64,000 bases of DNA, from assembly GCF_988242995.1 (NCBI RefSeq), contig NZ_OZ547043.1; one strand, written 5' to 3'. Position 1 is the stretch's first letter. Every line of letters starts with the position of its first letter. The notes beneath the pieces were generated by a model. It was not told the origin of the DNA. It ran no database searches and saw only the letters and a program-made list of their open reading frames with translations. Shown here piece by piece: positions 10,662 to 61,981 of this stretch. Both the position numbers and the translations under genes were made by a program.

Positions 10662-11372
10662 GTGCACAGAAAACCCCCAGCTAGGCTGGGGGTTCCGGAA
10701 AGCTTTCAGCTTTGAGCCAGTTATTAAAACCCCTTTTGATTTGTTAAAACACCTTGCGGTCTGGCAACTGCAAGTGTCAAACAAGAAATCAAAAGGGGGT
10801 CCCAATGGGGAACGAAAAGAGCTTAGCGCACACCCGATGGAACTGTAAATATCACATAGTTTTTGCGCCAAAATACCGAAGACAGGTGTTCTACAGAGAG
10901 AAGCGTAGAGCAATAGGCAGTATTTTGAGAAAGCTGTGTGAGTGGAAAAGCGTACGGATTCTGGAAGCTGAATGCTGTGCAGATCATATCCATATGCTTG
11001 TGGAGATCCCGCCCAAAATGAGCGTATCCGGGTTTATGGGATATCTGAAAGGGAAAAGCAGTCTGATGCTTTACGAGCAGTTTGGTGATTTGAAATTCAA
11101 ATACAGGAACAGGGAGTTCTGGTGCAGAGGGTACTACGTCGATACAGTGGGTAAGAACACGGCGAAGATACAGGATTACATAAAGCACCAGCTTGAAGAG
11201 GATAAAATGGGAGAGCAGTTATCGATTCCCTATCCGGGCAGCCCGTTTACGGGCCGTAAGTAACGAAGTTGGATGCAAATGTCAGATCGTGTGCGCCTGT
11301 TAGGGCGCGGCTGGTAAGAGAGCCTTATAGGCGCATTTGAAAAACCTCCGGCTATGCCGGAGGATATTTATT
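10662..11372 (+). mobile_element. IS200 (IS200/IS605 family), about 711 bp, with terminal hairpins
   Basis: Contains the Y1 transposase gene; left-end hairpin cccccagctaggctggggg and right-end hairpin ctccggctatgccggag; boundaries inferred from interruption of lambda U. Confidence 0.8.
10805..11263 (+). CDS. tnpA: IS200 transposase TnpA (Y1/HUH)
   Basis: MGNEKSLAHTRWNCKYHIVFAPKYRRQVFY...HIHMLVEIPPK... matches IS200 TnpA (152 aa). Confidence 0.9.
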   Translation: MGNEKSLAHTRWNCKYHIVFAPKYRRQVFYREKRRAIGSILRKLCEWKSVRILEAECCADHIHMLVEIPPKMSVSGFMGYLKGKSSLMLYEQFGDLKFKYRNREFWCRGYYVDTVGKNTAKIQDYIKHQLEEDKMGEQLSIPYPGSPFTGRK

Positions 11373-58838: not shown

Positions 58839-59966
<1,128 letters not shown>

Positions 59967-60409
59967 TTATGTTGGCGTTTTCTATTCAGTATAGAAGTGG
60001 GAGCGACTGGGCGAGATGCGGAAGTTCTGGAATGTTTCTTTTTTTTGGTGATGGTGAACTGATTGTGACTGAAGAAGTTTGGCTACTTCTGCAATGTGAC
60101 AAGTTATGGCAGAGCTGGCTGGTGGCGAAGAATTTTGACGATTGAGGCATGCAGAAAAAAACGGGTTCAGCTTCAGTTGATCAAATGAGGAGTGAGAAGT
60201 CCGAAACAGGACTCGCTGTATAAATAAACAGCTATTTTGCTGAGGAAGGGTAAGATAACGGCGGGTGCCTGAAGCTTTCCGGTTTCAGGTTTACTCTGAG
60301 GTCTGGAAAGATGAAGCCCCAGGAGATATTTCTATCAACCCTGGGGCTGCCACTCCAAACCCAAACAATTTGGATGGTAGTCCCTTCTTCGCATGGAGGC
60401 AATATAAAC

Positions 60410-60562
60410 ATGCTGACGAAATATGCCCTTGCGGCAGTCATAGTGCTGTGTTTGACGGTGCTGGGATTTACGCTTCTGGTCGGAGACTCGCTGTGTGAGT
60501 TTACGGTGAAGGAACGTAATATTGAGTTTAAGGCTGTTCTCGCTTACGAACCGAAGAAGTAG
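60410..60562 (+). CDS. hokE: Hok-family toxin (50 aa), copy 1
   Basis: [50 protein letters not shown]; upstream in-frame mok-like extension from 60311. Confidence 0.8.
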
Positions 60563-60912
60563 CCGTTGTGCGGGGAGTAATCCCCGCATATCCGGTTGTC
60601 AGGTCAGGGTGGTAAGGCACCTGTTTTACACTTTCGCCCGCGGTCAGCAATGGCTGCGGGCGATTTCGTTTTACGAGCAATAACGAGTGTTGCCAACAGA
60701 AGTCCGAAACAGGATTTACTGTATAAATAAACAGTTATTTTGCTAAGGAAGGGTAAGATAACAGCGGGTGCCTGAAGCTTTCCGGTTTCAGGTTAACTCT
60801 GAGGTCTGGAAAGATGAAGCCCCAGGAGATATTTCTATCAATCCTGGGGCTGCCACTCCGAACCTCAACAACTCGGATGGTAGTCCCTTCTTCGCATGGA
60901 GGCAATATAAAC

Positions 60913-61065
60913 ATGCTGACGAAATATGCCCTTGTGGCAGTCATAGTGCTGTGTTTAACGGTGCTGGGATTTACGCTTCTGGTCCGCGACTCGCTGTGTG
61001 AGTTTACGGTAAAGGAACGTAATATTGAGTTTAAGGCTGTTCTCGCTTACGAACCGAAGAAGTAG
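60913..61065 (+). CDS. hokE: Hok-family toxin (50 aa), copy 2
   Basis: [50 protein letters not shown]; upstream mok-like extension from 60814. Confidence 0.8.
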
Positions 61066-61186
61066 CCGTTGTGCGGGGAGTAATCCCCGCATATCCGGTT
61101 GTCAGGTCAGGATGGTAAGGCACCTGCTTTACACTTTCGCCCGCGGTCAGCATTGGCTGCGGGCGAATCGCTCCGGGTATTGTCAA

Positions 61187-61807
61187 TTAATCGTGTTGGT
61201 ACAGCGTTATGACTATCTTTTCTTTTATCTGCCAGTGCACAGCAAACTGCTCATCCTCTAGTCGAATGATGATCTGCTGTTTATTCCAGCTAATTATCTG
61301 ATAATCCAGAAAACCTTGAGCGGCCTGTATCTTGCTTGCCTTAAATGCGCTCTCTTTGGCGGAAAATGCCAGTGTCAGCGCCAGAGAAAAGGTTAAACCG
61401 CATTCTGCGAGTCGCTCGTGTTCTGCTAGTGTAATAATGTTGTCTGTCAATTCTCTTGCGGTTTGTACAGAGAAAATCTCTTCGATATCAATGCCAATCG
61501 GTTGACGAGATACCACGGCTAATGCCGTAGTCCCACAGTGACTAATGCTGCCGTATACCCCCGCAGGCCACACAGGTTGGCGTAGCTCGCCGATTGCGGG
61601 CACACATTTATAGCCATATTCCCGCAGCGCATAAACTGCAGCGATCCGTCCGGCTAAATGCTCTGTTTTACGTTTACGTCCAGCGTGTTGCAGTTGCGCG
61701 TAGTGTGGCAGCCAGAGTAAATCCTGCTCACAAAAACTCGCCGGATCAAACTCAACAAAATGCAGCGTATGTCCTGCAAAGGGGAGGGAGGTATGCGTAG
61801 TTTTCAT
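61187..61807 (-). CDS. entD: Enterobactin synthase phosphopantetheinyl transferase EntD
   Basis: Matches EntD from MKTTHTSLPFAGHTLHFVEFDP... Confidence 0.85.
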   Translation of the reverse strand: MKTTHTSLPFAGHTLHFVEFDPASFCEQDLLWLPHYAQLQHAGRKRKTEHLAGRIAAVYALREYGYKCVPAIGELRQPVWPAGVYGSISHCGTTALAVVSRQPIGIDIEEIFSVQTARELTDNIITLAEHERLAECGLTFSLALTLAFSAKESAFKASKIQAAQGFLDYQIISWNKQQIIIRLEDEQFAVHWQIKEKIVITLYQHD

Positions 61808-61981
61808 GTCGACCATATTAGAGAATGATGACAAACGCAAAACTGCCTGATGCGCTACGCTTATCAGGCCTACGTGGTCCTGCAATGTATTGAATTGGCA
61901 AGATTTTTGTAGGCCGGATAAGGCATTCACGCCACATCCGGCATGAATTACGCGCACTTTGTCAACAATCTGACGTTAGCA

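Follow-up and report, generated by a model that had tools for sequence, protein, structure and literature searches.

Does the pair of hokE toxin-antitoxin units lying side by side between ybdK and entD reflect a young duplication whose copies have only begun to part, or an old arrangement of which the single, IS186-flanked hokE of Escherichia coli K-12 is a remnant, and do both units still hold all the parts of a hok/sok-type module? We examined the locus in a stretch of 64,000 nts (hereafter the window; position 1 is its first letter). A repeat search of the window returned a direct repeat of 300 nt with a start-to-start spacing of 503 nt, and base-by-base comparison at offset 503 defined two homologous stretches of 470 nt each, here called unit 1 (60195-60664, + strand; proximal, on the ybdK side) and unit 2 (60698-61167, + strand; distal, on the entD side). 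Their alignment is gap-free and contains 22 substitutions (95.3% identity), and between them lies a 33-nt spacer (60665-60697, + strand) that matches neither flank at this offset. A preliminary description of the window had placed a tandem hokE duplication at 60199-61163, which is confirmed; its unit size of about 502 bp was essentially right, the measured period being 503. Tandem Repeats Finder reported no repeat in the region because this period exceeds the longest one that it can detect (500).

The pair is bordered by ybdK (58839-59957, - strand) on the left and by entD (61187-61807, - strand) on the right, with fepA beyond. No IS element is present between hok copy 2 and entD, and IS186 is absent from the locus; entD follows directly, just as had been stated. 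A truncation of fepA, the ORF call of which begins at an internal Met, was considered and rejected, as the frame is open up to the edge of the window. The interval between ybdK and unit 1 (59958-60194, 237 nt) is 89-99% conserved among E. coli strains, and in some genomes the PGAP annotation includes a 42-aa hypothetical protein within it. In the entD-fepA intergenic region, Rfam matches to ES036/CssrF (40.8 bits) and, below threshold, naRNA4 (a REP-like element) were found at 61866-61907 (- strand) and 61912-61953 (+ strand). Elsewhere in the window, an STnc490 Rfam match scores 146 bits at 10672-10795 (+ strand), and Rhs and VgrG (type VI secretion) genes adjoin the cus operon within 39500-64000, according to the annotations of matching genomes.

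Both units encode a 50-aa Hok peptide, located at 60410-60562 (copy 1, + strand) and 60913-61065 (copy 2, + strand) by translation and Pfam PF01848. The two peptides are 96% identical, and the translations bear out the only two differences between them, A8V (LAAV/LVAV) and G25R (GDS/RDS), which had been read correctly before. Scores for Pfam HOK_GEF (PF01848) are 32.1 bits for copy 1 and 39.8 bits for copy 2 at a cut-off of 22, which places both peptides, as judged from their sequences, in the Hok/Gef toxin family. NCBIfam contains no HokE-specific model, and the peptides stay under the cut-offs of its HokA equivalog and Hok subfamily models. Copy 1 is identical to K-12 HokE at 50/50 residues and copy 2 at 48/50; this near-identity, together with the ybdK-entD location, assigns both genes to hokE by orthology. 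The peptide of copy 2 recurs unchanged as the distal HokE of VCSW7 and as the one HokE of N1131, a single-copy strain. The codon for Tyr46 is TAC in both copies (60545-60547 and 61048-61050), lies within a conserved GCTTACGAA context and is invariant in an alignment of eight units. In hokE mRNA, A-to-I editing by TadA is reported to recode the Tyr46 position, in a TTACGAA context, to Cys, the partner of Cys29 (bioRxiv 10.1101/2025.08.07.668861).

Upstream of each toxin start lies a hok mRNA leader (60263-60418 and 60766-60921, both + strand). With scores of 85.4 and 81.9 bits, respectively, and a gathering score of 59, the two leaders match the Rfam hok/sok model RF01794 over the full model length, and the first includes the target hairpin at 60344-60385. 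Each unit also has a mok-like upstream ORF of 83 aa in the hok frame (60311-60562 and 60814-61065, + strand), which runs on through hok in both copies; GAGG precedes its ATG at 60311 (60814 in copy 2). With an upstream ORF and an intact hok in both copies, the earlier statement that each unit has a mok-like leader and a 50-aa Hok holds. The ATG is kept in nearly all of 36 units compared, and the frame and length of the ORF vary by strain: in 7 of the 34 units that could be scored, the frame is changed or only 17-22 aa of the ORF remain. A 1-nt C insertion after ATGAAGCCCCAGGA leads to an upstream ORF of 62 aa in the +1 frame that still crosses the hok start; truncation to 17-22 aa, seen in seven units, is caused by a 1-nt deletion or a TGA in the target loop. 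Unit 1 of E. whittamii carries both indels, which compensate each other and restore the 83-aa frame. Because frame and length are not conserved across strains, it is uncertain whether the ORF from ATG 60311 is the true mok. It shares the hok frame and starts further upstream than the mok of plasmid R1.

The mRNA ends were examined by folding. MFE folds of 406-nt transcripts predict an 8-bp closing helix between the 5' and 3' ends in both copies, in which tac-like segments at 60263-60270 and 60766-60773 pair with fbi-like 3' elements at 60615-60622 (copy 1, + strand) and 61118-61125 (copy 2, + strand), respectively; the predicted pairing would match the tac/fbi-type closure expected of hok mRNAs. 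A terminator scan placed a hairpin at the end of unit 1 (60634-60663, + strand), and the T-run that follows it (TTTCGTTTT) is supplied by the inter-unit spacer, where the scan match ends. The equivalent hairpin of unit 2 (61137-61166, + strand) is convergent with entD and has no T-run (AATCGCTCC). We considered whether copy 2 is defective for want of a terminator and rejected the idea: a T-run-less hairpin is, on sequence comparison, the native state of the entD-proximal unit, because single-copy strains and E. albertii have it too. A scan of the region for sigma-70 consensus promoters returned nothing above threshold, the hok promoter included. Two 69-aa ORFs run antisense to the hok leaders (60232-60441 and 60735-60944, both - strand); at this site in many genomes they are PGAP 'hypothetical protein' CDSs, often frameshifted pseudogenes, and such calls over a hok/sok leader are probably spurious.

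The antisense RNA was placed by positional transfer from the curated MG1655 sokE (b4835), which lies on the opposite strand, 44-103 nt upstream of the hokE ATG, through a gap-free alignment of the window with K-12. The resulting 60-nt sokE genes occupy 60307-60366 (copy 1, - strand) and 60810-60869 (copy 2, - strand). Both predicted Sok RNAs fold with about 10 nt of single-stranded 5' tail ahead of a terminator hairpin that has a U-rich 3' end. The two Sok RNAs are distinguished by Sok positions +4, +5, +10, and +28. The preliminary description had advised a search of the complementary strand for sok promoters, and reading the sequence by eye yielded a candidate in both copies: TTGCCT (60402-60397), a 17-nt spacer, and TACCAT (60379-60374) in copy 1 (60374-60402, - strand), with the same sequence in copy 2 (60877-60905, - strand). 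The position of this TTGCCT-N17-TACCAT candidate fits the annotated 5' end of sokE and its sequence is invariant in the eight-unit alignment; its score is below the threshold of the consensus scanner. Both units thus appear to have a cis-encoded antisense Sok that overlaps the leader and the start of the upstream ORF. Taken together, hok, leader, upstream ORF, sokE, closing helix, and hairpin can be recognized in each module, and both are structurally complete in terms of sequence and predicted fold.

How common is such a pair? A 2-kb query across the site matched 5,415 of the 5,426 complete E. coli genomes, many of which RefSeq annotates as 'hokE (x2)'; two annotated hokE genes occur in many lineages, O157:H7 and O111 among them. 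Using blastn with a 101-nt query and at least 80% coverage, we found the unit-spacer-unit junction in 2,505 of the 5,426 genomes (46%). A megablast count of 438 genomes was discarded as an undercount, because the polymorphic 101-nt query rarely gives an exact 28-mer. An assembly artefact or a chance repeat can be ruled out, because the identical arrangement is found in thousands of complete genomes; collapse to a single copy on resequencing, proposed earlier as the observation that would overturn the duplication, does not apply here. The implied unusualness of the tandem is likewise unsupported, as about 46% of complete E. coli genomes and E. whittamii have it.

Copy number at the site ranges from one to three units in the genomes sampled. 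One intact unit is present in N1131, APEC IMT5155, M172-1, and A19, two are found in VCSW7, O157:H7, O111:H-, FORC_041, and others, and GPEC1035 has three. The tandem hokE pairs in RefSeq (VCSW7, O157:H7 TT12A, and O111:H- 11128) resemble that of the window in having two units, a 33-34-nt spacer and the same flanks, and differ from it by allelic differences only. VCSW7, a soil isolate, is the best match of the hokE region (98.1% identity over 2 kb), and both of its HokE proteins are identical to those of the window. Over the 24.5 kb of window positions 39500-64000, the best identity among the 5,426 complete E. coli genomes is 97.1%; the source of the window appears to be a rather divergent Escherichia lineage. 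In four E. coli strains (AVS0151, AVS0096, FDAARGOS_1252, and M70), two SDR-family oxidoreductase genes and an ABC transporter permease gene take the place of entD after the tandem; the right-hand neighborhood is therefore variable.

The curated MG1655 record of K-12 has a single hokE followed by IS186B, in agreement with the preliminary description. K-12 hokE/sokE (b4415/b4835) shares with the window the ybdK-entD site, the Hok of copy 1, the position of sokE, and the leader, and unit 1 is 99.0% identical to the K-12 unit over positions 1-390; where K-12 has this one unit plus IS186B, the window carries an intact pair without any IS, as the suggested comparison of the two hokE regions brings out. 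IS186B in K-12 sits inside the GGGGAGTAATCCCC hairpin, 9 nt past the hok stop. In the window, the GCGGGGAGTAATCCCCGC hairpin after the hok stop, which is the IS186 site in K-12, is uninterrupted in both copies (60570-60587, + strand, and 61073-61090), so neither is an IS186-disrupted hokE of the K-12 type. A hokE-IS186 junction was found in 1,964 genomes (36% of complete E. coli genomes), and because it is limited to this share, IS-free hokE is the majority state. O104:H4 carries IS186-family elements after both hokE units. These insertions suggest that the GCGGGGAGTAATCCCCGC hairpin is a G4-N6-C4 hot spot for IS186, an element with a known target preference.

We then considered the age of the pair. 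A degenerate HokE-specific pattern, applied to GTDB species representatives, gave two matches exactly 503 nt apart in E. whittamii; BLAST added a second tandem, likewise with a period of 503 nt, in Escherichia sp. MOD1-EC7003, while E. albertii and Escherichia sp. E1V33 proved to have one unit each. The spacer of the window has homologous counterparts in VCSW7, GPEC1035, MOD1-EC7003, and E. whittamii, and this homology points to one duplication event for the tandems of E. coli, MOD1-EC7003, and E. whittamii. The spacer also bears a weak resemblance to the left flank (TGATCA and AATGA motifs), which suggests that the duplication extended about 25-30 nt beyond the upstream edge of the conserved unit and that this extra piece has diverged since. 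A foreign origin of the spacer, or its being the scar of a mobile element, was rejected on account of both its homology across E. coli strains, MOD1-EC7003, and E. whittamii and this likeness to the left flank.

In neighbor-joining trees of 30 and 36 units, which were built without support values from 470 nt of mosaic sequence, units of the same genome are never sisters except in E. whittamii, where gene conversion is the likely cause. Instead, a single group unites the distal units of the window, VCSW7, GPEC1035, O111, O157, and others. Unit 2 shares its Sok-tail haplotype with the single unit of E. albertii, and rooting on E. albertii suggests that the distal copy keeps the ancestral Sok tail; the proximal copy is the K-12-like one. 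The single unit of N1131 is chimeric, combining a proximal-type Sok tail with a distal-type Hok, as would be expected if two units had collapsed into one by unequal crossing-over. Because co-resident units are not each other's closest relatives (E. whittamii excepted), the pair in the window is best described, on this phylogenetic evidence, as old paralogues and not as a recent duplication that is starting to diverge. The points of fact in the earlier description stand, the structural integrity of both copies and their residue differences among them. A recent strain-specific event, or an artefact, would have in its favor only the general tendency of assemblers to mishandle repeats; the 22 fixed differences between the copies speak against it, as do the 2,505 complete genomes and the second species that share the architecture with position-orthologous copies, and we regard it as refuted.

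The history that we propose is as follows. One old duplication of about 503 nt would have occurred in the Escherichia lineage, and the stretch of upstream flank carried along with it would have become the spacer. Unequal crossing-over and gene conversion since then would have produced the copy-number polymorphism, and the single, IS186-flanked hokE of K-12 would be a collapsed and disrupted, hence derived, state of the locus. Overall, we consider it very likely that the locus consists of two complete type I hok/sok-type modules of the hokE lineage, that these stem from one old duplication with a copy number polymorphic ever since, and that the K-12 state is derived.

If both modules work in the manner of the R1 hok/sok paradigm, each would give rise to a stable hok mRNA that is kept closed by the predicted pairing of its 5' end with the 3' element. 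The full-length mRNA would be inert and would become active through 3' processing. Translation of the 50-aa membrane toxin would depend on, and be coupled to, translation of the overlapping upstream ORF; the 60-nt Sok from the opposite strand would pair with the leader, block translation of the upstream ORF and hok, and trigger cleavage. These regulatory steps are deduced by analogy with R1 hok/sok and from the conservation of sequence and structure.

A different reading is that one or both hokE copies are inert relics, no longer working as toxin-antitoxin systems and kept by neutrality and gene conversion. Chromosomal hok loci have been reported not to mediate post-segregational killing, hokA, hokB, and hokC having failed to do so, and have been suggested to be inactive (bioRxiv 10.1101/2025.08.07.668861). 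The free variation of hokE copy number in the sampled genomes would agree with such decay, as would the disruption of the hokE 3' UTR by IS186 in 36% of genomes without apparent cost and the seven of 34 units, scored from other strains, in which the upstream ORF stops before hok. Against this, all recognizable elements are intact in both copies of the window, and the compensating pair of indels in unit 1 of E. whittamii restores the 83-aa frame. K-12 HokE, to which copy 1 is identical, is listed as toxic on overexpression (bioRxiv 10.1101/2025.08.07.668861). Conservation argues in the same direction: in a comparison of the window with E. whittamii, identity is about 96% for the units, 93% for ybdK, and 91% on the entD side. 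The 470-nt unit as a whole exceeds the adjacent protein-coding genes in cross-species conservation, whereas the spacer and the left flank have strongly diverged. This excess of identity over the flanks fits constraint on the whole unit, but gene conversion or inter-species transfer, instead of selection, could also account for it. On balance we think it unlikely that the copies are relics, and we continue with two complete modules as the preferred reading.

The differences between the two modules are unevenly distributed. Six of the 22 inter-copy differences fall within 33 nt (60339-60371) that cover the Sok 5' end and the Sok-target leader hairpin. Across 36 units, pairwise diversity reaches 0.19 in the 20-nt Sok-tail region (60347-60366), the values being 0.067 for the third codon positions of hok and 0.035 for the remainder of the unit. 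The tail is enriched in segregating sites relative to the rest of the unit (Fisher p=0.003); relative to hok third codon positions, the enrichment is not significant (Fisher p=0.09). The tails fall into nine discrete haplotypes, some of them common to E. coli, E. whittamii, and E. albertii, and in all 14 within-genome pairs of units the two tails differ at no fewer than 3 of the 20 positions. Predicted 12-nt tail duplexes have energies of -19.8 and -21.9 kcal/mol for cognate and -13.4 and -8.4 kcal/mol for non-cognate combinations, the latter being 6-13 kcal/mol weaker; over the full 60 nt, non-cognate duplexes are still predicted to be very stable (-108 to -117 kcal/mol).

These observations raise the idea that the copies are insulated paralogues, in which the Sok 5' tail and the target hairpin diverged after duplication, so that each Sok prefers its own hok mRNA and the locus holds two independently regulated switches. 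Three of the four Sok differences lie in the first 10 nt, the cognate 12-nt tail duplexes are predicted to be the stronger ones, and the high tail diversity, the nine haplotypes with their cross-species distribution, and the consistent difference between co-resident tails all agree with it. There is also a precedent, as the 3-nt variable region V1 lets OrzO, and not OrzP, repress zorO in the tandem zor/orz locus (PMC3919570). Several points weaken the case, among them the non-significant comparison with third codon positions and the stability of the full-length non-cognate duplexes. The tail region is free of hok coding constraint and may simply evolve fast. Shared ancestry and the orthology of copy position confound the within-genome comparison, and the units sampled are few and phylogenetically structured; since 17% of random between-genome pairs are identical, the chance of meeting no identical pair in 12 genomes is about 11%. 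We thus regard insulation as a possible explanation of the divergence, albeit on the doubtful side. The broader proposition, that the tandem is kept as an insulated pair whose 20-nt tail and target are under diversifying or balancing selection, with some haplotypes shared across species and Soks that discriminate, is about as doubtful.

Comparison with known systems places the locus among familiar ones. Plasmid R1 hok/sok resembles it in the Hok/Gef peptide, the Rfam leader, a Sok composed of a tail and a hairpin, the 5'-3' helix, and the overlapping upstream ORF; unlike R1, the locus of the window is chromosomal, and a role in post-segregational killing is not expected. Like hokE, zorO-orzO/zorP-orzP, ibs/sib, and ldr/rdl have near-identical modules within one intergenic region and inter-copy differences concentrated in the 5' pairing region of the sRNA (PMC2887945, PMC3919570); discrimination is experimental for the Orz RNAs, whereas for SokE it is predicted only. 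Type I toxin-antitoxin loci in general tend toward tandem repetition (PMC2887945). A 2025-26 survey of Hok proteins, in which Sok and Mok were not analyzed, assigned 10% of Hok genes, and 13.5% of chromosomal Escherichia hok genes, to 'islets' of 2-6 homologs formed by local duplication, an islet comprising at least two hok members of one identity cluster within less than 2 kb of each other (bioRxiv 10.1101/2025.08.07.668861). The pair in the window is such an islet, with hok starts 503 nt apart and peptides that are 96% identical. Our literature search found no paper devoted specifically to the hokE tandem between ybdK and entD, and Faridani 2006 has no hokE content. Tandem hokE is an ordinary, old, and widespread copy-number variant of a known toxin-antitoxin locus, and both the phenomenon and its annotation are already known.

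The value of the finding is mainly corrective. The single, IS186-flanked hokE of K-12 is best seen as derived and the tandem of intact modules as the more complete form, and the use of K-12 as the reference in annotation and comparative work leads to an under-counting of hok modules. Should the Sok tails confer cognate specificity, the locus would be a compact natural case of antitoxin insulation after duplication in the hok/sok family, a process shown experimentally only in other type I families, and an insulated hokE locus would offer a natural system in which to follow the evolution of cis-antisense antitoxin specificity.
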